Source: Terriglobales bacterium | Lineage (GTDB): Bacteria > Acidobacteriota > Terriglobia > Terriglobales > Acidobacteriaceae | Assembly: GCA_035262645.1 (NCBI GenBank) | Contig: DATFSK010000015.1 | Coordinates: forward strand, 22,729 to 86,728 | Length of the DNA stretch: 64,000 nucleotides | Reading direction: 5' to 3' | Part shown: one piece after another, positions 8,325 through 53,109 of the stretch | Position numbering within the stretch: the stretch's first letter is position 1 | How the letters are laid out: each line of letters starts with the position of its first letter | Made by a program: the position numbers and the translations under genes | Notes under the pieces: generated by a model | Seen by the model: only the letters and a program-made list of their open reading frames with translations | Database searches by the model: none | Told to the model about the DNA's origin: nothing

Positions 8325-8352
8325 GTCGCCGGTTGTCCGTTGCCGGTTGTCA
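8325..8352. repeat. 7-nt-period tandem array (GTTGYCN)x4
   Basis: gtcgccg gttgtcc gttgccg gttgtca, read directly in the amtB / 8498 divergent spacer. Confidence 0.7.
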
Positions 8353-8497
8353 GGTAAAACCTCGCTATGTAGCTGTTGCGGTTGCAGTTGGGCGACCCGG
8401 ATGCTTGGATGGGAAGGCAACGATGGCGGACTGGCTGGTCATCTTTTATAAGCAAGAGAGTATTATTCTGGCACGGACATAGGTGGTGGAGGTGGGG

Positions 8498-9178
8498 ATG
8501 TACAGGATCGTCACCGTGGAGCGCGAGTACGGCGCGGGCGGAAGCCTGGTGGCGGCTGACTTGGCGCGCCGCAAGGGCTGGCAACTGCTCGACCAGCAGC
8601 TGACGTGCGAGATCGCGAGGCTGGCATCGGTGGATGAGCATGCCGTCGCGCGCCGCGAGGAGCGCTGCGATCCGCTGCTGCATCGGCTGGCGAAGGTTTT
8701 CTGGCGCGGAAGTTATGAGCGTTCGCTACCCATCTCGGATGAGAAGCTTTTTGGCGCTGACGAACTGGTGGAGCACGCGCACGAGGTCATCGAGAAGAAG
8801 GCGAAGGAAGGGAACTGTGTGATCGTAGGGCGCGGCGCGCCGTACATTTTGCGCGCGCGGCCGGATGCGTTTCACGTTTTCGTCTATGGCTCGCGCGAGA
8901 AGAAGATCGAGCGGCTGGTGAAGCTGAAGATGAGTGAGAAGGAAGCCACGGAGATGGTCGACACCATCGACCGCGAGCGAGCGGCGTTCGTGCGCAAGTA
9001 CTTCAACGCGGAGTGGCCATGCCGGCGGTTGTATCACCTGATGTTGAACTCCGATCATGGAATTGAGCACGTTACCGACACCATCATGGCGACGATGGAG
9101 GCCCTGGAGCGGCAAGGGAAGCTGGAGCCGCCGGGCAAGGGCGTGAACCTTGAGCGGGTAAAGCAGCCTGTGGGATGA
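8498..9178 (+). CDS. cytidylate kinase-like family protein
   Basis: MYRIVTVEREYGAGGSLVAADLA... N-terminal EREYGAGG motif and an overall pattern typical of the Cytidylate_kin2-like family. Internal Met of track ORF 8483..9178. Confidence 0.7.
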   Translation: MYRIVTVEREYGAGGSLVAADLARRKGWQLLDQQLTCEIARLASVDEHAVARREERCDPLLHRLAKVFWRGSYERSLPISDEKLFGADELVEHAHEVIEKKAKEGNCVIVGRGAPYILRARPDAFHVFVYGSREKKIERLVKLKMSEKEATEMVDTIDRERAAFVRKYFNAEWPCRRLYHLMLNSDHGIEHVTDTIMATMEALERQGKLEPPGKGVNLERVKQPVG

Positions 9179-9221
9179 CGCCGCGCGTGTTTGCGCTCCC
9201 TCCTTTTTGAAACAGCGAATT

Positions 9222-9255
9222 AACCACAGAGACACAGAGTCACAGAGGGAAAAGC
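9222..9255 (+). repeat. CACAGAGA-type repeat arm (solo)
   Basis: aaccacagagacacagagtcacagagggaaaagc. Same motif as the inverted arms at 56171/56277 and the reversed arm at 58030. Confidence 0.6.
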
Positions 9256-9562
9256 TTCCCGCACGGCGGTCACCATTCACCTCCTCCCGAATTGAATTCG
9301 TCACAGCACACCTGTGACGGCTGTGCTTGCACTATGTTCCGCCAGGGCTAGACTGAGGATGCGCGAGGTTGCCGACCGCAAGGAGGTAGCCAGAATGCGA
9401 AAACTCTCCTCGAGAAGTCCGCGAGCGAAACGCGGAACCCCGACTACAAAGAGGTTTGTGAAAGACGTCTCCGGCGATTGAGGAGAGTTGTCAGTACTGC
9501 TCTTGTCGATTTATCTCAACTGCGGGTCGAGGGCCCGCCACAAACCTCTTTGGGAGGGCGCT

Positions 9563-10045
9563 ATGCCACTGAACAAGGTGAAGGCATTCCTCGATGGTCA
9601 TCGCACGAAATACGTCCTCATTTCGCACTCCAAGGCCTACACGGCGCAGGGCATCGCCGCCATCTCGCACATCCCGGGCAAGGAACTTGCCAAAACGGTC
9701 ATCTTGAAACTTGATGGTGCGCTTGCCATGGCGGTGCTGCCCGCGTCGTATCAAGTCGACCTGGAGGCGCTGCGCCGCGCCACCGGCGTGCAGGTGGCGG
9801 AGCTGGCCAGCGAGCGCGAGTTCAAACAGCACTTCGCCGATTGCGAGACGGGAGCGATGCCGCCTTTCGGCAATCTGTACAGCATCCCGGTGTACGTCGA
9901 CCAGACGCTGACGGAAGACCACGAGATCGCCTTCAACGCCGGCTCGCATTACGAGCTGATCAAGATGGCGTACCGCGATTTCGAGCGCCTGGTGAAGCCG
10001 GAGGTGATGGCGTTCTCCACCGCGCGCGAGCACGTGCTGGTGTGA
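9563..10045 (+). CDS. YbaK/aminoacyl-tRNA deacylase-like domain protein
   Basis: Internal ATG with GGGAGGG SD upstream. MPLNKVKAFLDGHRTKYVLISH...GAMPPFGNLY resembles the YbaK/ProX editing-domain family. Confidence 0.75.
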   Translation: MPLNKVKAFLDGHRTKYVLISHSKAYTAQGIAAISHIPGKELAKTVILKLDGALAMAVLPASYQVDLEALRRATGVQVAELASEREFKQHFADCETGAMPPFGNLYSIPVYVDQTLTEDHEIAFNAGSHYELIKMAYRDFERLVKPEVMAFSTAREHVLV

Positions 10046-10421
10046 GTGGAGCTTGACCGGACGGAGCGGCGCAAATTCCCGCATCGCCCGCAGGTCCAAG
10101 CCCCAGCAGGGGCTGCGGCGATGTTGCGCTGCTCCGCCGGCCGTAGAGTTCGCAGACGAGGGCCCGTGGTCGGGAGCAAGGCCGAGTCCCGATCTGCCGT
10201 TCGATCCGGTATCGAACAGGATCGCCCCTGCTGGCGAGGGCCCCGTCTGCGCTTGTCTTCTCGGGCAGCATCGTGTCCAGACTACCGACTGTTGGTGCAT
10301 CGGTGAGGGGCAATCCAGAAATTGCTCCAGGCTACAAGCCGGCCTGTGTTCCGTTAAGGCGCAGCGCTGCGTCGCATCTTCCCGAAGCCCGTTTCTGGGC
10401 AACTTGCAGCTGCCCGTATCT

Positions 10422-13400
10422 TCAGTGAAGTTTGGCGTATTCAGCTTTGGCTTGCTGATAGATCGGAATATCGGGATCGGCATCCTTCCAGAGAGTGAGA
10501 AACTCCTGATACGAGCTGCGCGCGGCCACCTTGTCGCCCATCATCAGCTGCGCGCGGGCAAGCTGCAAACGTGCCAGCGGTCCGTTGATGGAATTGCCGA
10601 TCAGCCCAGGATAGGCGAGCATCTTGCGAAATTCGCCAGCGGCTTTGTCAGGCTTTCCGGCACTCAAGTAGGCCTCACCACGCACGTAGGCGGATTCCAG
10701 CGAGAAAGCATCCCCAAACCTCAAGTCATAGGGTGCGGCGCGCTCGAGCGCCTGGAGTGCAGCTTCCGGGTGGTGTTGCTCAAGGGCGATCTGCGCGCGC
10801 AGCGTCGGCAAGTCACACCCCTGGATGAGCGTGTTTACCGGATTCTCCCGATCAATCCGCTCGCCGATTTTCCAGGCGTGATCTCTATCTCCAATCCGGG
10901 CGAGAGCGAGTGCAGTTAGCTGGGAGGCGCGCCGGTTGAGATTTAGCTTGAGGGCGTGCAAAGAAAAATTCCGCGCCTGCTTCATATCCCCGACTTTGGC
11001 GGCGCGCAGGGCGGCCACGGCCAGCCACTCGCCGCCGCGCTCTGCCGACTTGGCGGCTGCAGCTTGGTCGGCAGCGCGGCGCGAAAGTTCGTTGGCCTTC
11101 CGCAGACGGCCAAAATATCCTTCGGTCTCGGACTGCTCGCGCGTGAGGAAGTCCACAACCGCTGGTTTGTCCGCGGCCCAGCGAAGTTGCTCTTGCATCC
11201 CTTCCTCATCTTTGGCCAAAAACGCGAGACGATAGCTGCCCCAACGCAGGTTCCACGCGTCCAGCTTGTGGCGGTAGGCCTGATCGAGCGCCTGTTTGGC
11301 CTCTTCCACGCGGTTGAGGGCCATGTAAGAGAAAGCCAGGTTGCCATGCGCCGACATTTGGTCGGGCATGGCGCGGGCGCATTCCCGCTCGGCTTCGATA
11401 GAGCGCTCATATTCGCCCATCAGGCGCAGGACGTAACCGAGGTTGCTTCGCGACCGAATAGCGGCAGGAAGATCGCGGGTCACCTGTTCGAGGGTCGCAA
11501 TGGCTTTGTCGAACTCGCCTGTGACATCGATGTAGTAGAGGACTGCGGTGTCGAGCCGGTCGCGGACGGTGCTGCGCTCGCGCAGCTCGAAGGCTTTGGT
11601 GAAGTTCTGCACTTCGCCCTCGCGGTTGATGAGATTGTTGTAACAAGCTCCCAGCCAGCGGTAGGCAAGGGCAAAGTTGCCGTCGAGTTCGATGGCCCGC
11701 GAGAACGAGGCTACGGCTTCCGGGTTGCCGTAGCGCATTCTTCCCGCTGCGAAGGCCTGAAGCGATTCGAGGGAGGCGCTGGAAGCTTCCTCGAGCGGTT
11801 GGTTGTAGGTCTGCAAGGAAGCCTTCGGCTCGCCTAACTGCTGTCGCAGCGTAAAAGTCGCCGCATCGAGATTCTTAACGATGTGACCGCGCTCGGTCGC
11901 GCGTGACGAGCTTCGCGCCAGCAACCCACCGGTCTTGCAATTGTGTGCGGCGAGTTTGATTTCGTATTCGTTTCCGATGTCGGCGATCGAGCCCTCCACA
12001 TAAGCTGCGCTATTGGTGTGCAGGCAAACGTCGCGGGCAAGCCACGCGGTCAAGCGCTCGTCGCCAGGTTTGTTCATCGATTTCAAGGCTTCGGAAATCT
12101 TCTCCGGTAGCAGGAGATTGAGAAATGGCGTCTGTCCGAGCGAGATGTCTAGTGCCGGTTGCAACGCCGTGTCGAGCACGGGATCGTGGGTGAGATTGGT
12201 AAATTCCGCCAGTACGATGGTGTCGTCGGCGGTGAGGTGAACGGTATTCCTCGAGCGTATGAAGAACCAGGCTGTGACGAAGGCGATCGCGAGCGCGGCG
12301 GCCGCGAGAGCATATTGCCAGCGCACTCGCAGACGTGCGGGGGTGAGCAACGACTGAAGCTCGGCACGCATGTCGGCCGCGGACTGGTACCGCAGATTGC
12401 GGTCCTTTTGCAGCGCCTTGTTGAGGACGTTTTCAAGTTGCGGCGAGATGGCCGGGTTCACCTGCCGCGCCGGAAGTGGATCCTGGTGCAGGATGGCGTC
12501 TTGCACCTGGGCGGCAGTTTCGCCCGAAAATGCCTGCTGTCCGGTGGCCATCTGGTAGAGAACGAGCCCGAAGGCGAACAGGTCGGTTCGTGCATCGAGG
12601 GTCTCGCCACGCACCTGTTCCGGCGACATGTAGGAAGCCGTGCCCAAGGCACTGCCGGGTCGCGTCAGATGGGGAGCGATGCTTGTCTCAGGTGATGCGT
12701 AAAGGCCTGCATCGACAGCGCGCGCGGGCTCGTCTTCGAAATGAGATTCCAACAGTTTGGCCAGTCCGAAGTCGAGAACCTTTACCGCACCTTTACTCGT
12801 AAGGAAGATGTTCGCCGGCTTGATGTCGCGATGAATAATGCCCTGTTCGTGCGCAGCTTCCAGGGCGTTCGCTATTCCGGTGCCGATGCTCAGCAATTCC
12901 GGGAGAGCGATGCCTGCCTTCGGAGCCGATCCAGGCATTCGGTCGCGAAGGGTCTCACCTTCCAGCAGTTCCATCTCTATGAACGGCTGGCCCTCGTGCT
13001 CCTGCACCGAGTAAATGGTGCAGATGTTGGGATGGTTGAGTGACGAGGCCGTGCGGGCCTCGCGCTCGAATCGCTGCAACGCGCTGGGGTCGCCGGCGAG
13101 CTCCTCGGGAAGAAACTTCAGGGCGACGCGTCGTCCAAGCCTCAAGTCTTCGGCCTCGTAGACGACACCCATGCCACCACCACCGATCACCTGAAGCACG
13201 CGGTAGTGGGCGACCTTCTTGCCGATCAGACCACCTGAATCGGGAGGCGCCGGAGCAGGGGGGAGAACGTCATCGCCGGGAGCGCTCAGGTCGGGTAGCG
13301 GCTGGACAGCAACGATGAAGCGGTAGCCGCGGCGGCCGACGGTCTCGACGTATATCGGTTGATCGGCCGAGTCGCCCAAGGCGGAGCGCAGCCTGCGTAC

Positions 13401-15563: not shown

Positions 15564-17026
15564 ATGCAACACCAGATCAGGATGTGGAGTATCGCAACAA
15601 CATTGTTGGCCATGGTGGTGATGCCCATAGGCACCGCGGCGCAGAGCAGTTCCTCGCCGGTGGTACATCACACTTACACCTTGATTGACATGGGTACGTT
15701 CGGAGGGCCGCAGACCTACCCGAATATCGTTCAGGGTGTTCAGTCACTCAGCCAGACTGGAGTGCTCTCGGGCTGTTCGGAGACGGCGATGTCGAACCCG
15801 AAGTATCCAACGGCAATCCCTTTCTGTTTCCGCCGCCCGAGCCCGACCCGTACATTGTCCATGCTTTTCAGTACAGCAATGACGTTGTGACGGATATGGG
15901 AGCTTTGCCGGGCTCTAATACGAGCTGCGCGCTCTGGACAAACGACTAAGGCCTAACAACCGGCGCTTCGGAGAATGGGCAGATCGATCCGCTCACGGGT
16001 TGGCCCGAGATCGAAGCGGTGCTGTGGCGGAATGGACAACTGCTCCCCCTGGGCACGCTCGGCGGCTACGAGAGCTTTCCGGTGTCGGTAAATAACGGTG
16101 GGCAAGTGACCGGATTTGCGACCAACTCCGTACCCGACGATCTGTTCGGCTTTGGTACGCAGGTGCGTGCCTTCCTGTGGCAAGGAGGGACAATGCGGGA
16201 CCTGGGAACTCTGGGCGGTCCGGATGCGTTTGGGATCGTCGTGAACGATGGCGGCCAGGTGCTCGGCTTCTCGCTCACCGCGGACCTGCGAGGCGATGCG
16301 TTTCTCTGGCAGAACGGTGTCTTCAGCGACATCCCGGATGCGATCGGCGGAACTGAGATCAATCCTTTTTTCCTCAATAACCAGGGCATGGTGATCGGAA
16401 ACGCCAGCGTCGTCGATGACCAGGTGTTCCATCCCTTTCTGTGGCAAAACGGAGTCATGCAGGACCTCGGGACTTTCGGCGGGACCGATGGGGAGGCGGT
16501 TTGGGTGAATCAACGCGGCCAGGTTGTCGGCACCGCCAACTTCGCAGGCGATACCACCCATCATGCGTTCCTATGGCAGAACGGTACGCTGATCGATCTT
16601 GTTCCGGCACCCGGCTATAATTGCAGCGGCGGTGCCGCCATTAATTCGGTAGGCCAGGCGGTAGGTTTCTCATCCGATTGTCACCAATCCCACGCTCCGA
16701 TGCTGTGGGAGGGAGGAGAGGCCATCGACCTCAGTACCCTCACCAATGTCCCGCCCAATATGTACATCGCAGGGGCACTCAATATCAACAACCAGGGACA
16801 GATTGCGGCGGTGGGAGTTGTGGACAACGCCTACCTGCATGCGCTGTTACTGGTCCCCAGCGGCATCTGCAGCGGCAGCTGCCAAAACAATATCGCGGCA
16901 TCGAAGGCAGCCAAGGCACTCAGCACTCCGGGTCCCAAGTCCTCGGCGGGCTTTTCGGATCCATATGCCAATGGCTCACGCGGCCACTCAGCAATATCGC
17001 GGCTCTTGCGCAACACAGTCAGGTGA
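15564..17026 (+). pseudogene. disrupted tandem paralog of the HAF-repeat protein (frameshift plus in-frame TAA)
   Basis: The N-terminus (track ORF 15564..15890) parallels the upstream gene (HHTYTLIDMGTFGG vs HHTYRLIDIGTFGG). The frame switches between about 15786 and 15806 (SET... then ...VSNGNPFLFPPPEPDPYIVHAFQY in another frame). TAA at 15947-15949 interrupts ...CALWTND*GLTTGASENGQIDP. The rest is track ORF 16019..17026. Confidence 0.75.
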
Positions 17027-17150: not shown

Positions 17151-17175
17151 TATGGGAAAAGGTTGCCGGGAAGGA

Positions 17176-17210
17176 GTCGTCAGTTGTCGGTTGTCAGTTG
17201 TCGGTGGTCA
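17176..17210. repeat. 7-nt-period tandem array (GTNGTCR)x5
   Basis: gtcgtca gttgtcg gttgtca gttgtcg gtggtca. On the minus strand, TGA recurs every 14 nt and so falls in all three frames. Confidence 0.75.
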
Positions 17211-17359
17211 GACGGTGCGGCCTCGCGCTCAACGTCAGGAGACAACGATGACGTGCCGGAGCCTACTTCTCTGCAGCATCCGGCGACAAAGGTAAGCATC
17301 ACAATCGCACTGCGTCGCTCTGCGGTACAATTTCCTCGCAACATACGAGGAGAACTCAC

Positions 17360-18541: not shown

Positions 18542-18829
18542 ACTGCGCTTTGCGATCGACAGGAGCGGCGTGGTCCAGCCTGACACCGTTCTTCTTCAGC
18601 TCGACCCAAGCGGAGAAACGGTAAAAATCCGCGCCACCGCTCCCTGTCGAATGTCTGGAGGCACCTGCTGCTGCGGTCCGAGGAGAAAAGACCACCCCCA
18701 GACAATGAAATAGGTTGGATCCGGATTCAAACAGAAGGGATGCGGCGATGCAAGGACGGAATCGGAATGGCGCAAAATTGCGCGGGAATTACGAATAGCG
18801 CCGTAGCCGCACAATCCATCGCAGAAATA

Positions 18830-19261: not shown

Positions 19262-19282
19262 GTTGTCGGTTGTCCGTTGTCA
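19262..19282. repeat. 7-nt-period tandem array (GTTGTCN)x3
   Basis: gttgtcg gttgtcc gttgtca, 6 nt from the atpC start codon. Confidence 0.7.
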
Positions 19283-19313
19283 GCGACGGGCCTGCGCGCG
19301 TCCCGCCGTCGGC

Positions 19314-19355
19314 AAATTACTAATTACTAATTGCTAATTGCTAATTGCTAATTGC
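19314..19355. repeat. 7-nt-period tandem array (TAATTRC)x6
   Basis: aaattac taattac taattgc x4, beginning 5 nt beyond the atpD stop codon. Confidence 0.85.
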
Positions 19356-19360
19356 TTTTT

Positions 19361-20839
<1,479 letters not shown>

Positions 20840-20917
20840 CTAAATCTCGAATCTGAACCCTCAACCAGTACTGCGCGAAGCGTTTGCTTTGGCCGACAGC
20901 CGATAGCGGCTGCTGCC

Positions 20918-21952
20918 TTACAGCGCCGCAGCGCCACTCACGATCTCGATAATTTCCTTCGTGATCGCGGCCTGGCGTGCGCGGTTCATCGTCAGCGTCA
21001 GCGAGTCGATCACCTCGCTGGCATTGTTGCTGGCCGAATCCATCGCCGTCATGCGCGCCGCGTTCTCCGCCGCCACCGACTCCAGCATTGACTGGAAAAT
21101 TTGCAGCACCACGTAGCGCGGCAAAATGCCGGCAAAAATCTCTCCCGGCGGCTGCTCGTAGATGTAGTCGACGTTCGCTGGAAATTCCTTCGCCTGCCGT
21201 TCCAGTTCCGTTTCGCCCGGTTCCCTCAGACTTATGCCGGCGCCGAGCGCCGCCTCGCCCATGCGCTCTCGCTCTTCCACCGGAAATTCTTCCGTCAGGG
21301 CCACCTCGCGCCGTCCGATCTCCTGCACCGGCAAGATACGTTGCGCGATCAGGCGCTGCGAGATCACCGACTTGAACTCGTTGTAAATCACATAAATCGA
21401 GTCAATCTCGGCATCCTTATAAGCCTGAATAATGCGCTCGACGATCTCGGATACCGCCTCGTACTCCAATTTCCCCAGCACGTTCAAGTGTTCGCCGATG
21501 ATCTCAATCCTGCCCGCGCGGTCCTTGCTTCCGGCAGGCCGCACCGGATACCGGCGCCGCATGTAATCGCGTCCCTTACGGCCCACCGCCGCGATGCTGA
21601 CGTTCTTATCTTTAAAGAATGCGATGAACTTCGCGGCCGCCTTCAACACGTTTGCATTGAACGCCCCAGCCAGCCCGCGATCGCCAGTCACCAGTACCAG
21701 CAGAATGTTCTGCTCGGGCCTCTTGGCCAGCAGCGGATGTTTGGGCTCGCCCGTCTTCTCATCCATCAGATCGCCGCGCTCGATCAGCGAGCGTAGAACG
21801 TTGGTGATCATCAGCGCATACGGCCGCGATGCCAGTGCGCGCTCCTGGGCCCGGCGCAGCTTCGCTGCTGCCACCATCTTCATGGCTTTGGTGATCTGCC
21901 GCGTGTTCTTCACGCTGCGGATACGCCGCCGGATGTCTCGTATGTTCGCCAT
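20918..21952 (-). CDS. atpG: F1 ATP synthase subunit gamma (long form, 344 aa)
   Basis: N-terminus MANIRDIRRRIRSVKNTRQITKAMKMVAAAKLRRAQ and C-terminus ARQAAITKEIIEIVSGAAAL are canonical. Extra internal segment before DYIYEQPP. Confidence 0.95.
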   Translation of the reverse strand: MANIRDIRRRIRSVKNTRQITKAMKMVAAAKLRRAQERALASRPYALMITNVLRSLIERGDLMDEKTGEPKHPLLAKRPEQNILLVLVTGDRGLAGAFNANVLKAAAKFIAFFKDKNVSIAAVGRKGRDYMRRRYPVRPAGSKDRAGRIEIIGEHLNVLGKLEYEAVSEIVERIIQAYKDAEIDSIYVIYNEFKSVISQRLIAQRILPVQEIGRREVALTEEFPVEERERMGEAALGAGISLREPGETELERQAKEFPANVDYIYEQPPGEIFAGILPRYVVLQIFQSMLESVAAENAARMTAMDSASNNASEVIDSLTLTMNRARQAAITKEIIEIVSGAAAL

Positions 21953-34613: not shown

Positions 34614-34648
34614 CCCTGGCCACTAGCCACTAGCCACTAGCCACTGCT
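34614..34648. repeat. 7-nt-period tandem array (CCACTAG-type)x5, overlapping hom stop codon
   Basis: ccctggc cactagc cactagc cactagc cactgct. The hom TAG stop (34630-34632, minus strand) lies inside the array. Confidence 0.8.
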
Positions 34649-39610: not shown

Positions 39611-42316
39611 TTACTTCCCCCGGCGGGCTTGTTTGTTATTTACGGCCGATTTCTTTCCCTTCGGCAGGCCATCGCTACCGTCTCTCTGCGCGTCCGAAAC
39701 CTCTACCACGCTCAGCACCACGCCGTCGATGCGGTTGTCCAGAGTCTTGTAAGGCGAGAGCCGAAAGCGATACCAGCGCTTGTCTTTGTCCTGCACGTCA
39801 TATTGCTGCGTTTGCGCGTCCCGGACGATGTCCACCATCACCTGCTCCAGCCAGGGCAGGTCTATATTGAACTTGAGGCGCGGAATCGGCCTTCCGATGT
39901 CCGTATTCATCAGGCCCAGCAACGTGCCGGCCTGCGCAGTAAAGCGCCGCACGGTCAGGTCGGAACCCACCATCAGCATCGGCAGATCGACGTTGTTCAG
40001 CAGGTTGTTCAGATCATTATTAATCTGCGTCAGCATGTCATTACGGTGCTGCATCTCCTCGTTGACCGTGTGCAGCTCTTCATTTGCCGATTCCAACTCC
40101 TCCTTCGAAGTCTGGAGCTCTTCATTGGTGCTTTGCAGCTCCTCGTTGCCCGACTGGATCTCTTCGTTAGCCGACTGCAACTCCTCGTTCGTCGCCTCCT
40201 GCGCCTCGATGATCGACTGCAGATATTCCTTGGTCGCCGTCAGTTCTTGCCGCAGCTGGGCAATCTGCTCATCCTTGGCTGCTCGCTCCGCGTCGGTCAG
40301 TGGACCGGCGGTCACGGGCGCGACTGCGATATGTTCTGCCTCCGGGGCCTGTGGCTCAAACACGATCAGGTAATTGCCCGCCTCCTGCGGCGAGGGATTA
40401 AACGGTACGACGCGAATGGTGACTACCTTGGATTCTCCGTTCGTATCGACATGAATGTTGGGCCGCCTGCTCTCACCCTTGCTTTTGCGCGCTTCCTCAA
40501 CGACCCTTTGCAGCTCGAACAACAATCCAGGCTTCGCCATCTTCAGCAGATGCAGGCTGGCCTTGCCATGAGGCAACTCGAGAAATGACCCCGTGCGGCC
40601 CCGCGTCTGCAGAATTTCCATCTGCTCATTCACCACAACGGCCGGCGGCGCATAATGGGCCAGCAAGAGCCGGTCGGCTTCCCGCTGCAGCTCGATGGGC
40701 GCCTTGATTGTGTCATGCGGCTTGGCGGCCGGTGTGCCCCCGCCGCTTCCTTCCGGGCTTGTGTCGGGCACTCCGACCGCCAGGCCGAAGGTTACCGGGG
40801 AGGAAACCATCCGTTTGCGATAAATTTTTTGTTTTTTGTCGACCATATCGAACAGCTCGGATCCCGCTCCCAACAAGCCTTCCGTACTGCCGATGATCAG
40901 GAAGCCAGTCGGGTTCAGGGCGTAATGAAAGATCGGAATGACCTTCTTCTGCAGGGCCTGGCTGAGATAGATCATCACGTTGCGGCAGCTGATCAGGTCC
41001 ATCCGCGAGAACGGCGGATCACTAAAGACATTCTGTGTGGAAAAAATGCACAGGTCGCGAACCGTCTTGCCAATCTGGTACCCGGCATCGGTCTTATGGA
41101 AGAACCGTCGCAGGCGGGCCGGCGAAATATCGGCGCCAATACTCTCCTTGTAAATGCCTACCCGCGCCTTCTGGATCGCTCCCTCGCTCAGATCGGTGCC
41201 GAAGATTTGCACCGGAACTTCCGTCTTTTCCTCGCCCAAATACTCCATCAGCGAAATTGCGATCGAGTACGTTTCCTCTCCCGTCGAGCAGCCTGGCACC
41301 CATATGCGAATGGGATTTGCGGGCGTCATTCGCGCCTTCACGATGGCTGGATAAACTTCCTTCTTCAGCGCCTCAAATGCCTCCGGGTTGCGGAAGAAGC
41401 TGGTGACATTAATCAGCAGGTCCTGATAGAGGGAATTCACTTCGTTGCGATCGCGATGCAGGATTGCTGTGTATTCGCTGAGCTTGTGGACGCGATTGAG
41501 CGCCATGCGCCGCTGGATGCGGCGTCCGATTGTCGGCGGCTTGTATTCGGAAAAATCAACTCCCGTGGCTCGCCGCAGCAGGCGGAAAACCTGCCCCATA
41601 AAGGCGTCGGTCGTTTCCTGGCTTTCCGCTCCTGGCTCCAGCAGTTTTCCCGCGACGTAGGGGTGCTGCCGGATGCGGTCCAGTTCCTTGGCAATGCCTT
41701 CGGGCGGCAAAATAAAATCGACAGCACCGGCGGAAATAGCGCTGGCAGGCATGCCATCGTACTTCGCCGTGCGTGGGTCCTGTGCGAAGGTAATGCCACC
41801 CTCGCCCTTAATCGCGGCCAAGCCGAGCGTGCCGTCCGTAGCCGTACCCGACAACACCACACCAATGGCATTTCTGCTCTGGTCGGTGGCCAGCGAGCGC
41901 AGGAAGATATCGATCGTGGTATTGACCGTGTGTGGTTCCTGCCGCTCCGACAAAACCAGCACGCCCGCTTGGATGGTCATGTCGCAGTTGGGCGGGATCA
42001 CGTACACGTGGTCTGGCTGTACACGCATTCCGTTCTGCGCCGTCAGCACGGGTATCGACGTTGTTCGCGAAAGGATCTGCGAGAACGCGCTCTCGCGCGA
42101 GGGGTCAAGGTGCGGCACCAGGATGAGCGATAACCCAGGATGTGGCGAAAGCGCCTTGAGAAACGAGGTGAACGCTTCCAATCCGCCGGCGGAGGCGCCG
42201 ATCCCTACGATAGGAAAGCTGTCTCTGGCGTGATCGCCAGACGAGTTCGCGGCCTTCCCCTTGGTTTTTTCCTTTCCGGCGCCTTCCGATTTACGAGTTG
42301 AGCGCGAGGGTGTCAT
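39611..42316 (-). CDS. CheB methylesterase - CheR methyltransferase - PAS - coiled coil - PAS fusion protein
   Basis: 901 aa. CheB-like GIGASAGGLEAF, CheR SAM-binding IWVPGCSTGEETYSIA, NEELQS heptad coiled coil, and a C-terminal PAS-like domain. Confidence 0.9.
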   Translation of the reverse strand: MTPSRSTRKSEGAGKEKTKGKAANSSGDHARDSFPIVGIGASAGGLEAFTSFLKALSPHPGLSLILVPHLDPSRESAFSQILSRTTSIPVLTAQNGMRVQPDHVYVIPPNCDMTIQAGVLVLSERQEPHTVNTTIDIFLRSLATDQSRNAIGVVLSGTATDGTLGLAAIKGEGGITFAQDPRTAKYDGMPASAISAGAVDFILPPEGIAKELDRIRQHPYVAGKLLEPGAESQETTDAFMGQVFRLLRRATGVDFSEYKPPTIGRRIQRRMALNRVHKLSEYTAILHRDRNEVNSLYQDLLINVTSFFRNPEAFEALKKEVYPAIVKARMTPANPIRIWVPGCSTGEETYSIAISLMEYLGEEKTEVPVQIFGTDLSEGAIQKARVGIYKESIGADISPARLRRFFHKTDAGYQIGKTVRDLCIFSTQNVFSDPPFSRMDLISCRNVMIYLSQALQKKVIPIFHYALNPTGFLIIGSTEGLLGAGSELFDMVDKKQKIYRKRMVSSPVTFGLAVGVPDTSPEGSGGGTPAAKPHDTIKAPIELQREADRLLLAHYAPPAVVVNEQMEILQTRGRTGSFLELPHGKASLHLLKMAKPGLLFELQRVVEEARKSKGESRRPNIHVDTNGESKVVTIRVVPFNPSPQEAGNYLIVFEPQAPEAEHIAVAPVTAGPLTDAERAAKDEQIAQLRQELTATKEYLQSIIEAQEATNEELQSANEEIQSGNEELQSTNEELQTSKEELESANEELHTVNEEMQHRNDMLTQINNDLNNLLNNVDLPMLMVGSDLTVRRFTAQAGTLLGLMNTDIGRPIPRLKFNIDLPWLEQVMVDIVRDAQTQQYDVQDKDKRWYRFRLSPYKTLDNRIDGVVLSVVEVSDAQRDGSDGLPKGKKSAVNNKQARRGK

Positions 42317-44632: not shown

Positions 44633-44751
44633 AGAACCTTCTTTCGGGCGCGAAGATGCGGTTACACCAACCCACAACTATGAAACACGCCCCGCAACCC
44701 CACAAGGCTCTACATCACACCACCTTCGGTTATGCAACCGCCGCTGATGCT

Positions 44752-45441: not shown

Positions 45442-45450
45442 AATCTCAAG

Positions 45451-45484
45451 CCCCTAATCCCTAATCCCCAGCCCCTTACCCCTT
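45451..45484. repeat. 7-nt-period tandem array (YCCCYWR)x5 in scoA-scoB junction
   Basis: cccctaa tccctaa tccccag cccctta cccctt. The array contains the scoA stop codon. Confidence 0.6.
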
Positions 45485-47395: not shown

Positions 47396-48631
47396 ATGCG
47401 CACCCTACATCGCCTCGCCTTCGTTCTCTTCGTCGCCACAGCTGCCTTCTCTCAAACGTCCCAATCATCGCCTTCAACACCTCAAGACTGGCGCGCCATT
47501 CACAACTCGGCCATCATCATCGACACCCATGCCGACACGCCGGGCCGCCTCGTCGACGAGAACTTCGATCTTGCGCAGGACGCGGGCACCGGCTATCTCG
47601 ACTTCAACAAGATCAAGGCCGGCAATCTCGGCGCCCAATTCTTCTCCATCTGGGTTGAACCCAAGGCCAACAAGGGCAACGAGGCCAAGCGCGCCCTCGA
47701 CATGATCGACGCGGTCTATGAGCAGGCGCGCCGCCATCCCGACAAGATGATGATGGCCTACGGGACGCACGACATCGTCGTCGCGCATCAAGAGCACAAG
47801 CTCGCCGCGCTGCTCGGAGTGGAAGGTGGTCACGCAATCGAGGGCGACATCCGCATCCTGCGCGACTACTACCGTCTCGGCGTCCGCTACATGACTCTGA
47901 CCTGGTCGAATACCAACGAGATCGGCGATTCCAGCGGTGATATGGATGACAAGAACATCCAGCGCCATGGCGGCCTCACTCCCTTCGGACGCGAAGTGGT
48001 CGAGGAGATGAACCGCCTGGGCATGATCGTCGACATCTCGCATGTTGCCGACTCGACGTTCTACCAGGCGCTGGAGTTGAGCAAGGCGCCGGTTATCGCG
48101 TCGCATTCGTCGTCACGCGCGCTCACCAACGCCCCGCGCAATATGACCGACGACATGTTGCGCGCCCTCGCCGCCAAGAACGGCGTCGCACAGGTGAACT
48201 TCTATTGCGCCTTCGTCTCACAGAAGTATCTGGACGCCGCGAAGCAGCTCAGAGTCCAGCATGACCCGGATTATGAGAAGGTGCAATCACTGTTCATCAA
48301 GCCGCAGACGCCGGAGACCGCGAAAGAATTAGCTGAGGCCAAGGCGAAGCTCGCACCCAAGCTGCCACGACCGCCGCTCAGCGATCTGATCGACCATATC
48401 GACCATATGGCGAAGGTCGCCGGTGTTGACCATGTCGGACTGGGCTCGGATTTCGACGGCATTGACTGCTCGCCGCAGGGGCTCGACTCGGTTGCCGATT
48501 TGCCGAAAATCACCGAGGCCTTGTCCCAGCGCGGCTACACAGCCGCCGATCTTGATAAGATTCTTGGCGGCAATCTGCTGCGCGTATTCGGCCAGGTAGA
48601 AAAGGTCTCGCGGCAGATGCAAAGGCAGTGA
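47396..48631 (+). CDS. membrane dipeptidase (peptidase M19)
   Basis: 411 aa with a signal peptide. Motifs IIDTHADTP, GVEGGHAIEG, DISHV, HSSSRAL and GLGSDFDGI. Confidence 0.9.
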   Translation: MRTLHRLAFVLFVATAAFSQTSQSSPSTPQDWRAIHNSAIIIDTHADTPGRLVDENFDLAQDAGTGYLDFNKIKAGNLGAQFFSIWVEPKANKGNEAKRALDMIDAVYEQARRHPDKMMMAYGTHDIVVAHQEHKLAALLGVEGGHAIEGDIRILRDYYRLGVRYMTLTWSNTNEIGDSSGDMDDKNIQRHGGLTPFGREVVEEMNRLGMIVDISHVADSTFYQALELSKAPVIASHSSSRALTNAPRNMTDDMLRALAAKNGVAQVNFYCAFVSQKYLDAAKQLRVQHDPDYEKVQSLFIKPQTPETAKELAEAKAKLAPKLPRPPLSDLIDHIDHMAKVAGVDHVGLGSDFDGIDCSPQGLDSVADLPKITEALSQRGYTAADLDKILGGNLLRVFGQVEKVSRQMQRQ

Positions 48632-48673
48632 CTAGTGGTCAGTGGCCAGTGGCTAGTTGCTGGCGGATAGTTG
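48625..48673. repeat. 7-nt-period tandem array (CTAGTGG-type)x7, overlapping dipeptidase stop codon
   Basis: gcagtga ctagtgg tcagtgg ccagtgg ctagttg ctggcgg atagttg. Confidence 0.8.
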
Positions 48674-48717
48674 TTGTGAAATAAGAAGCCGCGTTGACCT
48701 GCATCGGTTGGTGCCGG

Positions 48718-48734
48718 GGCGCTGCTTGAGCGCC
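48718..48734. repeat. GC-rich REP-like hairpin (GGCGCT-gcttg-AGCGCC)
   Basis: Read directly. Lies between the two inverted heptamer arrays. Confidence 0.4.
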
Positions 48735-48782
48735 GTGACCGCAACCGGCCGTGGACTCCAACGTGGTCGCGCGATCGTCTTA

Positions 48783-48810
48783 CTAACCACTAGCCACTAG
48801 CCACTGATTT
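48783..48810. repeat. 7-nt-period tandem array (CTAGCCA-type)x4
   Basis: ctaacca ctagcca ctagcca ctgattt. This is the reverse complement of the 48625 array unit and the same unit as 34614. Confidence 0.75.
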
Positions 48811-48820
48811 TGGAGACATC

Positions 48821-49516: not shown

Positions 49517-49693
49517 GCGGCGCGCCGCTACCGCGTATGGACGCAAGCCCGTGCTCGAAGGCCCTTCCCGATTCGAGACGTTTTTTCCCGGCGGGCAATA
49601 ATCACCGTTGCAAGTGAGGTGCGTCACAGCACCCCAGTGCGCTCTCATTCACAATGACTCAGGGATGGGTAGCCAGAGGGGTACCTGCCGGGA

Positions 49694-50089
49694 GTGTCGA
49701 TCATGTCTGAAGATAAGCGCGATGTGCTGGAAGTCCTTCGTTATGAACTGAATTTCCTCGAACAGGGCGGCTACGGCAACTGGTACAGCACGCCTTGGGG
49801 GCCGGCCTCCATCTTCCAGGATTCCCTTACCTGCCCCAATCATGGCGATCCCACGCGCCCTCATGCCTGCCGCGAGTGCCTGCTCTGGGACTTCGTGCCC
49901 GAGCAGTACCGCACCGAAGATGTTCCCTGCCACCACATTCCACTGAATCGCAACGGCGTCACCATTGCCACCCCAAACCAGACCGAAGAGGATCTGCGCG
50001 AAAACGTTAAACATTGGCTGAAGCGCACCATTGCACGAATCGAGGCTGAGCGCGCAGCCCAGACCAGGAACTCAAAGAAGTCGGCCTGA
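49694..50089 (+). CDS. hypothetical Cys/His-containing protein
   Basis: 131 aa. CPNHGDPTRPHACRECLLWDF...CHH suggests metal binding. No family recognised. Confidence 0.55.
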   Translation: MSIMSEDKRDVLEVLRYELNFLEQGGYGNWYSTPWGPASIFQDSLTCPNHGDPTRPHACRECLLWDFVPEQYRTEDVPCHHIPLNRNGVTIATPNQTEEDLRENVKHWLKRTIARIEAERAAQTRNSKKSA

Positions 50090-50218
50090 GCCGACAGCCG
50101 CGCCGTCATTTGGATTCCCATTTTGGAACAAGCAACCGTTTCCTTCTGTTCTTTACCGTCCCATCCCCTTGCTTTGCAATTACAATCCCCCTGATCTTTT
50201 CACTCGGGGGATTTCTTC

Positions 50219-50734
50219 ATGCAACGCAGCTTTGCCTCCTTGAGACCGCAAGAGGTCTTGCACATTGCTCTCTGCATCGAGCAGCGCAACGCCGGTATCT
50301 ATCATCGCTTCGCCGAAATGTTCACCGAGTTTGGCGATCCCGAGTCGCTGGAGATCGCAGCTGTGTTCTGGGAGATGGCGGTCGAAGAGCGCGAGCATCA
50401 TGCCTTGCTTGAGCGCCAGTACATACAACAGTACGGCAATCCCGTCCGCTCGTTCTCCGAGGAAGAACTGGTTGAGTTTATCGAGGTGCCCCGTCTGGAG
50501 CACGGCGACGTCTTCGGCGCCGTGGATGGCCTCGCCGCGCGCCAGGCCGCCCTGCAGGTGGCATTGCAGGCCGAGGTCAGCGCGCAACTCTTCTACACCA
50601 GGATGACCGAGCAAACCGCCGATGCCGCCCTCCGCCAGACTTATTACAACCTGGCGCAGATGGAGGACGGTCACGTCGCGTTTCTCGAAGCGAAGCTGTC
50701 TCAGGACACCACCGCCAAACCTATTCTGCAGTGA
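50219..50734 (+). CDS. ferritin-like / rubrerythrin-family diiron protein
   Basis: 171 aa with two ExxH motifs (EEREHHALLE, MEDGHVAFLE) in a four-helix pattern. Confidence 0.7.
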   Translation: MQRSFASLRPQEVLHIALCIEQRNAGIYHRFAEMFTEFGDPESLEIAAVFWEMAVEEREHHALLERQYIQQYGNPVRSFSEEELVEFIEVPRLEHGDVFGAVDGLAARQAALQVALQAEVSAQLFYTRMTEQTADAALRQTYYNLAQMEDGHVAFLEAKLSQDTTAKPILQ

Positions 50735-50758
50735 GCAGGCCGGCCCTTGGAAACACTA

Positions 50759-50911
50759 TCAGCGTTCCGGCTCATTAGAGTCCTTCTTGCCGCGCAGTTC
50801 TTCTTTCACTTTACGGCGCACGATTCCGTGAAACCGCTTCTTGCCCTCCGGCCGTAAGTGCTTTGCCCATTCGCCCGAGGCAGTGTCGGTCGGCTTATCT
50901 GTGCGTGCCAT
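50759..50911 (-). CDS. hypothetical small basic protein (50 aa)
   Basis: Below the ORF-track cutoff. GGGAGG lies 5 nt upstream of the ATG, and the ORF starts 13 nt after the DinB gene stop. Hand translation: MARTDKPTDTASGEWAKHLRPEGKKRFHGIVRRKVKEELRGKKDSNEPER. Confidence 0.5.
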   Translation of the reverse strand: MARTDKPTDTASGEWAKHLRPEGKKRFHGIVRRKVKEELRGKKDSNEPER

Positions 50912-50924
50912 GTTTGCCTCCCGC

Positions 50925-51494
50925 CTATCGCACCTTCAGCCCATACTTCTGCGTTGAAGGCGGCACAATCCCGTTCATCCGCAGATACTCGACAAGCTGC
51001 CCATAATGATCGGAGACATGCCACACCGCTGCCACGGCCACCCCCAGCTTCGTGTTCGGCGCCGCATACCGTCCATTCACGCGGGCCAAAGCGTTCTGCG
51101 TGTTGATGGTCGTCAGCACCTTGTTACCGTAGTCGAACGATTCGCGCAGGTATTGCAGCAATTCCTCTTTACTCTGCGCCTTCGCTGGCCCGCCCCTCTC
51201 GCATCCTTCCGGCGGCGTTTTGCCCTCGATCTCGTTGAAGAACGCAAAATTCGCGCAGGCCACGTGTTTTACCTGCTCGCCAAACGAGCGCGCGTCCTTG
51301 AAACTTCCCGCGGTCGGGATGAATGAATACTTGTCGGCGGGCATTGCTTCAGCCAACGCAAGAAACTGTCGCTGGGCGAGCTCCAGCATTTCCCCCACGC
51401 TCTCCGCGATGTTCTTCGGAATCTCATCCTGCTGAGCCCAGGCGGGAGAAGCAGCCAATATCAAAGCCAAGGCCAAGCGCGCGGCAGTCTTCAT
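50925..51494 (-). CDS. DinB family protein with signal peptide
   Basis: 189 aa. Signal peptide MKTAARLALALILAASPAWAQQ and a DinB-like His pattern (VKHVACANF, WHVSDHYGQLVEYL). Confidence 0.75.
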   Translation of the reverse strand: MKTAARLALALILAASPAWAQQDEIPKNIAESVGEMLELAQRQFLALAEAMPADKYSFIPTAGSFKDARSFGEQVKHVACANFAFFNEIEGKTPPEGCERGGPAKAQSKEELLQYLRESFDYGNKVLTTINTQNALARVNGRYAAPNTKLGVAVAAVWHVSDHYGQLVEYLRMNGIVPPSTQKYGLKVR

Positions 51495-51657
51495 CTGTTC
51501 CTCCTCATCGACCGCAAGAAATCATATTTGATCGTAGCCATTCGCCTATCGTCATCCTGCGATTCGCACGCATTGTCCCACACTAGTGGCACGCAAAAAT
51601 GTCTGGCATTGCCTGTTCTCGTGATAGGATGCGCTATCCTTATAGGCAGGAGTAGAC

Positions 51658-51834
51658 ATGCTCGATAATCTGTTTCAGCCCACCCACCTGCTGGTGATTC
51701 TCTTTATCGCCTTGCTGGTGTTCGGACCCAAGAAGCTTCCCGAACTTGGAAAGGGATTAGGCGAAGCCATCCGTGGCTTCAAAGAGTCGATGAACAGCAA
51801 TGACGCCGCTGCAGATCAGGAAAAGAAGGCGTAA
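51658..51834 (+). CDS. tatA: twin-arginine translocase subunit TatA/E
   Basis: 58 aa, below the ORF-track cutoff. AGGAG lies 6 nt upstream. MLDNLFQPTHLLVILFIALLVFGPKKLPELGKGLGEAIRGFKESMN. Confidence 0.85.
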   Translation: MLDNLFQPTHLLVILFIALLVFGPKKLPELGKGLGEAIRGFKESMNSNDAAADQEKKA

Positions 51835-51873
51835 TCGCTCGCCCCAGCGCCCCTCCGGACAAGGCGCAATTCG

Positions 51874-52137
51874 ATGCCTGACATTCTCTTCATTTTGCTA
51901 TTGGCTCTGGTGATCTTCGGTCCCAAGCGGCTGCCGGAGATCGCCCGCCAGCTGGCGAAGTTCATGGTGCAGTTTCGCATGATGCGTGACGATCTGAAGC
52001 GCCAATTAAACGCCGAGCTGCTTAAGATCGACCTGGAAGAGAAGCAGAAAGCTGCCGCGCTCCCACCTCGACCCGTGCAAACTGAACCGCAACCTGTCCC
52101 GACCGACCAACTGGCGGAAAACTCACCCACCGGGTGA
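51874..52137 (+). CDS. tatB: twin-arginine translocase TatA/TatB family protein (probable TatB)
   Basis: 87 aa. MPDILFILLLALVIFGPKRLPEIARQLAKFMVQFR, then an amphipathic helix. Confidence 0.75.
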   Translation: MPDILFILLLALVIFGPKRLPEIARQLAKFMVQFRMMRDDLKRQLNAELLKIDLEEKQKAAALPPRPVQTEPQPVPTDQLAENSPTG

Positions 52138-52174
52138 CATCGCTGTCGCCGACAGGATCCTCTTTCCTCCGCAA

Positions 52175-52213
52175 TTGTCATCCCGAGCGCAGCCGAGGGA
52201 TCTGTGGTTCGCC
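52175..52213 (+). repeat. TTGTCATCC-type repeat, short canonical variant
   Basis: ttgtcatcccgagcgcagccgagggatctgtggttcgcc. Confidence 0.8.
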
Positions 52214-52310
52214 CGAGCTCGCATGATGTTTTGTGCCGAAATTATTGCCCCGTTTCTTGCTCCACAGTGATACATTGTCTGAAATTTCACTACTCGGGGT
52301 TCACTGAACG

Positions 52311-53012
52311 ATGTCTCTCTCCCTGGAATCTCGTCCCTGCGGCAAGGTCTATCTCATCAAATGCTCCGGTCGAATCGTCACCGGTGAAGAAAGCGCCGTC
52401 CTGCAGGCCGCCATCAATCGCGCCCTGATGGAATTCAACCGTCTGGTGCTCGACGTCTCCGACGTCGAACGCGTTGACAGTAGCGGCTTGGGACTGCTGG
52501 TGCGTTTCCTCTCGCACACTCGCAATCACGGCGGCGACCTTCGCCTCGCCGCGCCTCAAAATTTCTTTCGCAGTTTGCTCGAAATGACGAAGCTGTCCAC
52601 AATTTTTCGCATCTACGACAGCGAGGAAGAAGCCGTCATCTCTTTCCTGAAAGAGCCTGCCACCCAAAATCCGGCCGCCGGAAAACCCGGCCCGCTGGTG
52701 CTCTTCGTCGATCAGTCGCCTGACCTCTGTGCCTTCGTACGATCCATGCTGAACCGCCATGGATATGAGGTGCTTTCCACCTGCCGTATGCGCGATGCCA
52801 GGACGCTCCTCAGCGCGGCGGACGTCGACTACATCGTGCTCGGCCCAGAGAGCTCGCAGCTGCCTTCCGACAATATCGCGGCTTCGCTCAAGCTGCTGGC
52901 GCCCAAAGCAGTGACCGTGCAGCTGGAAACCGGTTTCCAACTCGGCGACCCCGAAAGCGCAAGCGCCGAGTTGCTGCAGCGAATGCAGGCCGGCACCGGC
53001 GCCTCACGCTGA
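52311..53012 (+). CDS. STAS domain (anti-sigma-factor antagonist-like) fused to a degenerate receiver-like domain
   Basis: 233 aa. STAS pattern LVLDVSDVERVDSSGLGLLV. The C-terminal half resembles REC (LVLFVDQS...) but has Gly where the phospho-acceptor Asp is expected (DYIVLGP). Confidence 0.7.
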   Translation: MSLSLESRPCGKVYLIKCSGRIVTGEESAVLQAAINRALMEFNRLVLDVSDVERVDSSGLGLLVRFLSHTRNHGGDLRLAAPQNFFRSLLEMTKLSTIFRIYDSEEEAVISFLKEPATQNPAAGKPGPLVLFVDQSPDLCAFVRSMLNRHGYEVLSTCRMRDARTLLSAADVDYIVLGPESSQLPSDNIAASLKLLAPKAVTVQLETGFQLGDPESASAELLQRMQAGTGASR

Positions 53013-53046
53013 ACCGGGGAAGGAGCGACTCCCAATCTGTCATCGG

Positions 53047-53109
53047 CCAACTGCCATTTGCTGATTGCTAATTGTCAATTACTAATTACTAGCTACCAAC
53101 TACCGACAT
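53047..53109. repeat. 7-nt-period tandem array (CYNAYTR)x9 ending in the start codon of the next gene
   Basis: ccaactg ccatttg ctgattg ctaattg tcaatta ctaatta ctagcta ccaacta ccgacat. Confidence 0.8.

Follow-up and report, generated by a model that had tools for sequence, protein, structure and literature searches.

Seven-nucleotide repeat arrays at gene junctions of a Terriglobales bacterium as probable arms of palindromic insertions

What are the short tandem arrays with a 7-nt period that lie at the gene boundaries of a Terriglobales bacterium, and how did they come to be there? The question is raised by a stretch of 64,000 nt from the assembly GCA_035262645.1 (contig DATFSK010000015.1, positions 22,729 to 86,728 of the forward strand), below called the window, in which an earlier reading of the bare sequence, the original prediction, had listed such arrays and offered several ideas about their function. 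The best explanation, to which we assign a probability of roughly 0.55, is that the arrays, some of them paired and others orphaned, are arms of palindromic heptad-repeat insertions that carry no open reading frame (ORF), resemble the intervening sequences (IVSs) of rRNA, and sit at junctions between cistrons, with arms that change by slippage. A complete element consists of an upstream stop codon, 0-10 nt, a G/T-rich arm of three to ten 7-nt units, a variable interior, a reverse-complementary A/C-rich arm, 0-12 nt, and the next start codon. Such a palindromic family would have colonised gene junctions in Acidobacteriota, and the same design with other units is present in cyanobacteria and some proteobacteria.

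The period itself was examined with Tandem Repeats Finder (TRF) and with a self-diagonal scan of the window, using 30 dinucleotide-preserving shuffles as the null. TRF gave period 7 with 2.4-6 copies for 10 of the 11 arrays listed before. In the self-diagonal scan five arrays reached a score of at least 12 at period 7, against 0.0 in the shuffles, while the other periods from 4 to 15 had 0-3 matches each, these being of period 14 (twice 7) and period 8. Recovery by TRF, the excess over shuffles and agreement with the earlier transcription of the sequences leave ten real arrays. The eleventh, described as a weaker candidate at 44671-44705, was rejected as not periodic by TRF and by the self-diagonal scan.

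For their placement we used a gene map made with a codon-model caller, corrected and checked with Pfam, on which 18.8% of the window is non-coding; G+C is about 60%, and atpA-atpG-atpD-atpC are contiguous on the minus strand. All ten heptad arrays lie outside gene bodies (chance P ~6e-8), as had been stated, and the claim that eight lie within about 15 nt of a start or stop was likewise borne out, with 8/10 at no more than 15 nt from a gene end against 2.4 expected for random non-coding placement (P ~2e-4). The period is less strict than was thought: CACAGAGA octamer arrays at 9225-9247 and 56175-56198 have the same architecture. The features are as follows, with the TRF period-7 calls in brackets and unit sequences on the minus strand given in the sense direction.

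8325-8352, no strand assigned: solo array of four GTYGYCN units [8328-8349] in the divergent spacer between an ammonium transporter gene (minus) and a cytidylate-kinase-like gene (plus), 26 nt from the TTG start of amt.
9225-9247, plus: solo period-8 array of three CACAGAGA units, after the cytidylate-kinase-like gene.
17176-17210, plus: solo array of five GTTGTCR units with a period-14 ABAB superstructure [17175-17211], of the stop-side type (G/T-rich, CAGT core), 150 nt past the stop of gene 16019-17026 and beyond a terminator-like hairpin.
19262-19282, minus: start-side array of TGACAAC, GGACAAC and CGACAAC [19262-19281], ending 6 nt 5' of the atpC ATG, with no Shine-Dalgarno (SD) motif.
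19283-19313, minus: short GC-rich hairpin between the two atpD-atpC arrays.
19314-19355, minus: stop-side array of four GCAATTA and two GTAATTA units [19315-19356], beginning 5 nt past the atpD stop; the most perfect array of the window.
20812-20839, minus: start-side arm of CTGACGG, CCGAGAG, CCGACAG and CCGAGAG [20811-20833], ending 8 nt 5' of the atpD ATG.
20891-20907, minus: short complementary stop-side arm, GCTATCGGCTGTCGGCC, beginning 10 nt past the atpG stop.
34614-34648, minus: solo array of the stop-side type, CAGTGGC, TAGTGGC and further units [34619-34645], from which the homoserine dehydrogenase gene hom takes its final codons and its TAG stop.
45451-45484, minus: G-rich array of TAGGGAT/TAGGGGC-like units [45452-45468], which takes up the whole 34-nt gap between the genes of CoA-transferase A and B and overlaps the stop codon upstream.
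48625-48673, plus: stop-side arm of CAGTGRY-type units [48626-48657], which overlaps the M19 dipeptidase gene at its stop codon.
48783-48810, plus: start-side arm of CCACTAR units [48782-48805], ending 10 nt 5' of the cyclophilin ATG.
53047-53109, plus: degenerate start-side array of CTAATTR/CCAACTA units [53058-53091], abutting the ATG of a cupin gene, with no SD.
56170-56198, minus: period-8 start-side arm, TCTCTGTG three times (octamer array 56175-56198), of an inverted octamer pair.
56280-56300, minus: period-8 stop-side arm of the same pair, CACAGAGA twice plus flank, 0-4 nt past the upstream stop.

The first indication that these are parts of larger objects comes from inverted pairing. 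The window has two heptad pairs and one octamer pair; the rest of the heptad arrays are solitary. The arrays at 48625-48673 and 48783-48810, formerly listed as separate, are reverse complements (20/24 Watson-Crick pairs) and form the two arms of one hairpin, which closes the 189-nt spacer separating the M19 dipeptidase gene from that of cyclophilin (z = -4.73). In the same way the pair 20891-20907 and 20812-20839 closes the whole atpG-atpD spacer (z = -2.45), and the octamer pair at 56280-56300 and 56170-56198 gives a perfect 21-bp stem (z = -6.12). When the window is taken together with the atp loci described below, Watson-Crick complementarity reaches at least 70% in 18 of the 28 array pairs that share one co-directional spacer. 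In paired arms one begins 0-10 nt past the upstream stop and the other ends 4-19 nt before the downstream start. Deviations of units from their consensus pile up at one heptad phase (115/204, against 90.6 +/- 4 under the null), so that the older stems consist of 6-bp blocks split by single mismatches. We also compared arm polarity with the direction of transcription: start-side arms are all of the 3' type and stop-side arms mostly of the 5' type. Because an inverted repeat reads alike on both strands, this test was uninformative for pairs and was set aside; only the solos can be said to sit as half-elements would.

If the arrays arrived by insertion, relatives should differ in having them. Our lineage comparison covered 80 atpC loci (872 kb; labelled L001 onward). 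The atpC gene has its nearest relatives, with identities of up to 85%, in metagenome-assembled genomes (MAGs) of Terriglobales and Ca. Korobacteraceae, and the contigs with proteins identical to those of the window come from soil metagenomes. Period 7 dominates in these loci, with 90 arrays, while no other period between 4 and 12 has more than 16. Such arrays occur in many loci of Terriglobia and of Acidobacteriota generally, and are largely absent from non-acidobacterial ones (one Dehalococcoidia locus and one unclassified locus have one or two each). With the window included, 90/99 arrays lie outside called genes. Co-directional spacers of at least 30 nt bear arrays in 24% of cases, against 6-8% of convergent and divergent spacers.

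The atpD-atpC spacer measures 105 nt in the window; 43 of the 66 acidobacterial loci, those of the closest relatives of the window (L002, L003, L005-L007, L011 and L013) among them, have fewer than 40 nt there, and typically 3-7 nt. Arrays were found in 13 of the 23 long spacers. Since most relatives, the closest included, have a spacer under 40 nt, the two arrays of the window are, as judged from sequence comparison, a lineage-specific insertion. One locus, L009, shares the 3' end of the window spacer (...CTGACAACGGACAACCGACAACTTCTTTATG) and with it the 3' end of the array 19262-19282, which makes the insertion common to some lineages only. Conservation of array presence and period in orthologous spacers, which the original prediction had made a condition, is not supported, given the same 43 short spacers. 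In L004, whose record is titled as a Verrucomicrobiia MAG, atpC is 82% identical to that of the window and the atpD-atpC spacer has CCACTGG/CAACTGA arrays as in Korobacteraceae-like loci; this contig is probably mis-binned. In L002 the 386-nt atpG-atpD spacer (4166-4551) lacks heptad arrays, and the small ORF in it is another one (MNNLSTVLTITIPTFVV..., in which LNGKLDGSIERL motifs recur).

The spacer between atpG and atpD gave a clue to what the arms may surround. In L006, L010 (where it is frameshifted), L011-L013, L066 and L046 this spacer is about 480 nt long and has a small ORF inside. The order in all of them except L046 is a stop codon, a GTTGTCR array, the small ORF, a CAACTGA/CAACCGA (YGACAAC) array and the atpD start; in L046 the unit is ACGAGTC and the 3' array alone was detected. 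The ORF encodes a 23S-rRNA-intervening-sequence, or four-helix-bundle, protein of about 130 aa (S23p; PF05635, E = 1.8e-34, with a weaker bAvd match), which also matches TIGR02436 and PDB 2GSC (XCC0516 of Xanthomonas campestris, five chains). Its conserved C-terminus QLTTDN* is the array CAA CTG ACA ACC GAC AAC TGA read in frame (L010-L013, L066, L081-L084 and others), so the repeat supplies both the C-terminal tail and the stop codon of S23p. In L010 (4196-4531) the S23p ORF is frameshifted or truncated, with 90 aa and a second fragment in another frame, and the heptad arms are kept; this copy may be an intermediate towards ORF-less ones.

Does the association hold beyond the atp operon? We collected 80 soil-metagenome loci encoding relatives of the spacer protein and counted the 73 in which the gene has 100 nt or more of sequence on each side. 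A period-7 array lies upstream of the gene in 54 of them, downstream in 59 and on both sides in 46. Array density is 4.43 per kb in the S23p flanks and 0.25 per kb elsewhere in the same loci, an 18-fold difference. Where both arms are present they are near-perfect reverse complements with variant units mirrored (31/31, 37/38 and 38/41). In 36/40 cases the start of the 5' arm falls between -7 and +9 nt relative to the upstream stop, and for the 3' arm about two thirds of cases leave 0-12 nt between its end and the following start codon. Of 60 upstream neighbours 51 have the same orientation as the S23p gene, and the neighbours at 58 loci belong to at least 34 unrelated families, which indicates many distinct insertion sites. 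The arms have a common core, CAGT in 57 of 63 5' arms and ACTG in 61 of 65 3' arms, and their unit families include those of the window: AGTTGTC, AGTGGYC/CCACTRG and TAGTTGC (compare TAATTGC). The units at 19262-19282, ahead of atpC, are of the family found in the 3' arm of S23p elements. PADLOC defence models gave no match to S23p.

How far could slippage alone account for the arrays? The array at 19314-19355 has five GCAATTA units instead of four in contigs that match the window at 99.6-99.8% identity over 3.5-6.1 kb, and apart from this 7-nt indel the atpD-atpC region does not differ in length between them and the window. With a spacer of 98 nt in another contig, the lengths form a series of 98/105/112 nt; no variation was seen in the less perfect arrays among the few contigs available. 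The arms gain and lose whole units by slippage. The copy-number polymorphism proposed as a check is thus seen between near-identical strains, and the suggestion that these are slippage-prone repeats tolerated only outside ORFs holds as one component of the explanation. Taken as the entire explanation, it would make them plain simple sequence repeats (SSRs): slippage would favour 7-nt units, according to Mrazek's polymerase-footprint idea, and selection would purge ORFs of them, 7 not being a multiple of 3, with neither an element identity nor a function. Besides the one-unit polymorphism, the period-14 ABAB superstructures, the unequal copy numbers of some arms (37 and 4 in L168, a cyanobacterial plasmid described below), the status of heptamers as the commonest intergenic tandem repeat of prokaryotes and the lack of conservation in orthologous spacers all agree with this. 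However, slippage alone leaves unaccounted for the reverse-complementary pairs with mirrored variant units, the 18-fold enrichment beside one protein family, the recurrence of a few unit families with the CAGT/ACTG core, the closeness to gene ends (within 15 nt), well beyond that of random positions in non-coding DNA, and the growth of 3-7 nt junctions to 100-500 nt. We consider it rather improbable.

Another possibility is that the arrays serve the host as cis-regulatory RNA in translation, being unstructured, SD-independent landing pads for ribosomes or binding sites of S1, Csp or CsrA-like proteins, with multi-frame stops that end stray translation and a stem that couples neighbouring genes. 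Start-side arms are A/C-rich and G-poor. The arrays at 19262, 20812, 48783 and 53047 end 0-10 nt before start codons, and across the atp loci start-side arrays end 4-12 nt before verified atp starts. It had been claimed that atpC and the cupin gene have no SD and atpD a weak one, and this is correct. Among atp-gene starts an SD motif occurs in 11% of those with an array within 20 nt upstream and in 30% of those without, and pairing with the anti-SD is weaker (p = 4.5e-4); the idea of SD-less initiation leaders therefore fits the data. A frequent ending, ...ACTGATTnATG, puts TGA 2-5 nt before the ATG. Precedents are the published reporter effects of heptamer deletion in Nostoc and the role proposed for the TAACTGA repeats of Beggiatoaceae. 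Against this, atpC and other essential genes manage without arrays in most close relatives; arrays are also found in a divergent spacer, past a terminator-like hairpin and after operon-last genes; there is no wobble signature of RNA-level selection; and the low SD content could stem from an insertion that displaced the SD. The frame-independent translation barrier that had been suggested finds no support as a general property: of the 63-65 arms flanking S23p genes on each side, only 29% of the start-side arms block all three frames and 51% of the stop-side arms block none. A regulatory origin of this kind appears unlikely to us.

On our preferred reading, palindromic insertion, arm complementarity would be kept by DNA-level copying between the arms and not by selection on RNA structure, as is suggested by the mirrored variant units and by arm mismatches without a G:U excess (G:U against A:C, 16 vs 19 in same-spacer pairs and 28 vs 39 in S23p loci). 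Once transcribed, paired arms would fold into a stem of 17-35 bp inside the operon mRNA. The stem may bring the upstream stop and the downstream start together again, preserving translational coupling, and such juxtaposition would explain why an insertion of 100-500 nt is tolerated where relatives have 3-7 nt. By analogy with the stems of rRNA IVSs, it is a probable substrate of RNase III. A solitary A/C-rich arm before a start codon could stand in for the SD.

Complementarity that behaves as a property of DNA, without wobble bias, would also be expected of a DNA-level platform, either for a transcription factor or nucleoid protein, as in the heptameric direct repeats bound by SARP, or for non-B DNA (cruciform, G-quadruplex) that affects transcription. 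Here 21 nt equal two helical turns, the array at 8325 lies in a divergent promoter region, and the G-rich units at 45451 resemble the published G-quadruplex-forming repeats GGGGAYT and GGGAATC. Yet most arrays are found within operons, flanked by a stop and a start codon, and not at promoters, the units within one genome are too diverse for a single binding protein, and both copy number and presence vary freely among relatives. We regard such a platform as highly improbable.

Several observations weigh against the insertion of palindromic elements as well. Of the ten heptad arrays of the window seven are unpaired, and the two atpD-atpC arrays are not complementary to each other; their spacer does not fold better than its shuffled versions (z = -0.13). 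A test of wobble asymmetry gave no signal of RNA-level selection on the stems. At atpD-atpC neither a target-site duplication nor a clean boundary between empty and filled sites could be defined; an empty-site boundary was sought there and abandoned, as the flanks fail to align with the TCTGCC junction of the relatives. A blastn search with the element interiors of the window against 180 related loci returned chance matches only, unlike what is seen for classical miniature inverted-repeat transposable elements (MITEs), and no transposase, target-site duplication or mobility mechanism is evident. A six-frame translation of the window has no PF05635-like ORF. As the window has no S23p gene and most arrays of the atp loci are ORF-less, the relationship may run in either direction: S23p elements may have given rise to the arms, or hairpins that already existed may have taken in the gene as cargo. 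Cutting by RNase III, juxtaposition of stop and start and replacement of the SD are put forward by analogy or deduction.

The same architecture was traced in other phyla. A tblastn search with the S23p protein against plasmids gave 25 records, mostly from heterocystous cyanobacteria, the classic organisms of short tandemly repeated repetitive (STRR) sequences, and also from Gemmatirosa, Azospirillum and others. Complementary arrays surround the S23p gene in 10 of 12 plasmid regions, nine with heptamers and that of Gemmatirosa with octamers, and the gene usually lies between co-oriented genes (cas6/cas4, cas10/cmr3 and others). The arm pairs are these.

AGGGTGT and CTACACC.
AGTAGGG and TCCCTAC.
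AAAAGGG and CTTTTCC.
ACAGGTG (37 copies) and CTGTCAC (4 copies), in L168.
TCAGGAG and CTGACTC.
GGGAAAA and CCCTTTT.
GACGGAT-GACAGAG and GTCCTCT, in Azospirillum.
GAGGGCAG and CTCCTGCC, the octamers of Gemmatirosa (L167).

Among cyanobacterial plasmids (L165, L168 and L169) array-flanked S23p genes lie inside CRISPR-cas operons, between cas6 and cas4 and between cas10 and cmr3, and in Nostoc edaphicum one lies antisense between the two ribonucleotide reductase genes.

From this a broader proposal may be made, tentatively and with more doubt than confidence: a large share of prokaryotic intergenic heptamer repeats could be arms or remnants of palindromic elements that form a single class across phyla and, at full length, encode an S23p/Avd-like four-helix-bundle protein. 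The IVSs of 23S rRNA would then be the special case of copies that landed in rRNA helices; in Acidobacteria, cyanobacteria and others operon stop/start junctions would have been invaded, and tolerated where the hairpin restores the junction or RNase III removes it. The S23p pentamer might be the element's own nucleic-acid-binding factor, acting in its spread or maintenance.

Heptamer repeats have been noted since 1990, as STRR, and later proved to be the commonest intergenic tandem repeat across prokaryotes; bracketing of S23p genes may help to explain this abundance. Our analysis ties the arrays to a concrete object, inverted heptad arms at stop/start junctions that often bracket a PF05635 gene, and draws a link between intergenic heptamers, rRNA intervening sequences and the S23p family. 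It opens several ideas to testing, namely RNase III processing of operon mRNAs, coupling kept by hairpins, binding of S23p to heptad hairpins, and the way in which the elements spread. Annotation is affected too: genes take stop codons and C-terminal tails from the arrays (hom, and S23p with its QLTTDN), which also displace SDs and create misleading long antisense ORFs. As to the original prediction as a whole, slippage and SD-less leaders stood, the general translation barrier and orthologous conservation found no support, and the pairing, the S23p link, the period-8 analogues and the existing literature had been missed.

Some further features of the window were noted. Long antisense ORFs overlie real genes, for example a 579-aa ORF at 19352-21091 (plus) opposite atpD, which a naive caller based on GC3 and length favoured. 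An Rfam scan of the window found no family over any array; its sole match is a CyVA-1 RNA (RF02965) at 18565-18640 (minus), downstream of atpC and about 190 nt 3' of its stop (62.9 bits, gathering threshold 41.4, E = 3.6e-12). A 42-nt (14-aa) tandem repeat with 3.3 copies at 40050-40189 lies in a CheB-CheR-PAS fusion gene (39611-42316, minus); it is coding and has no relation to the heptad arrays.

How do the arrays compare with systems already described? As a correction to the original prediction, intergenic heptamer repeats from other phyla are already in the literature, although without an accepted function; a survey covering 7,006 genomes describes what they do as unknown (SPADE, 10.1101/309039). 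Heptamers are over-represented among intergenic SSRs, for which polymerase slippage has been proposed (Mrazek 2007, as cited by later papers); GGGAATC and GGGGAYT repeats of Xanthomonas and Nostoc were noted for inverted pairs and variability at orthologous sites, heptanucleotide elements were reported in Geobacter, and one preprint gives the reporter effects of deleting heptamers in Nostoc. Our literature search, outside which many subscription papers lay, found no acidobacterial heptamer repeats and no link to four-helix-bundle or S23p proteins beyond Coxiella.

Repetitive extragenic palindromes (REPs, with BIMEs and REPINs) and MITEs resemble the arrays as short extragenic palindromes that often lie just past stops in operons, exist in many copies, are absent from orthologous sites of relatives and form RNA hairpins. 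REPs, however, are imperfect palindromes of about 35 nt and not tandem heptads, and are moved by RAYT transposases, while MITEs have conserved interiors and target-site duplications. The interiors in the window are unique and neither target-site duplications nor a transposase are evident, so that a conserved interior, a duplication and a cognate transposase, the marks of MITEs and REPINs, are all missing.

The TAACTGA repeats of marine Beggiatoaceae, some cyanobacteria and Bacteroidetes end just before start codons with few SDs (MacGregor 2015, PMC4679880). Like the arrays of the window, they are made of 2-6 "forward" tandem heptamers near start codons, show no pattern in the function of downstream genes, differ by one base from the CAACTGA/CAACCGA of the window (the sense of GTTGTCR) and share the ACTG core. 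They differ in having essentially one unit, in being almost always solitary (one "indirect repeat"), in the absence of any noted link with S23p or hairpins, and in phylum. Start-proximal sense arrays without SD are thus present in the window and the unit TAACTGA is not, the nearest units being CAACYGA/GACAACN; the other families of the window are CCACTAG, CTAATTR and CCGASAG.

The likeness to the 23S rRNA IVSs with an S23p ORF, known from Coxiella, Leptospira, Brucella and others (PMC4990558), is structural. In Coxiella the IVS contains an ORF for S23p, its terminal stem of 28 bp is cut by RNase III at the first repeat, and at the stem it has two or three tandem GACAGAT heptamers, whose number varies among strains (PMC4990558). 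Common to both systems are terminal inverted repeats with a stem of 20-30 bp and a variable interior, which may hold a PF05635 gene, as it does between the same arm types in relatives of the window; ORF-less IVSs are also known. In contrast, IVSs lie in helix 25 or 45 of 23S rRNA and the arrays of the window between protein-coding genes, with no rRNA in the window; the copies of the window are ORF-less, their arms consist wholly of tandem heptads, and excision by RNase III is assumed by analogy, the stem length of 17-35 bp being compatible with it. A terminal stem is formed by three pairs in the window (z = -4.7, -2.45 and -6.1) and by none of the seven solitary arrays; an rRNA insertion site and an interior PF05635/TIGR02436 ORF are absent.

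Closest in appearance are STRR and other heptanucleotide SSRs (Mazel 1990; Mrazek 2007; Rehm 2015, PMC4692102; SPADE, 10.1101/309039), which are also intergenic 7-nt tandem units with several families per genome, occupy the same gene junctions in related strains with varying length and sequence, and in Xanthomonas occur as inverted pairs. STRR differ as a cyanobacterial marker with particular units. A cyanobacterial origin of the window, or membership in STRR, is ruled out by the contiguous atpAGDC, by the Terriglobales/Korobacteraceae relatives of atpC and by the differing units. Reportedly the STRR units are CCCCAGT, TTGGTCA and CAACAGT, and only the CAGT core of two of them is common to the window. 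The properties of heptanucleotide long SSRs (Mrazek 2007), namely tandem 7-nt units beyond chance, intergenic position and whole-unit variation among strains, are all present. The arrays of the window combine known kinds, heptamer SSRs of the STRR-like sort and IVS elements, in a phylum without an earlier description of them.

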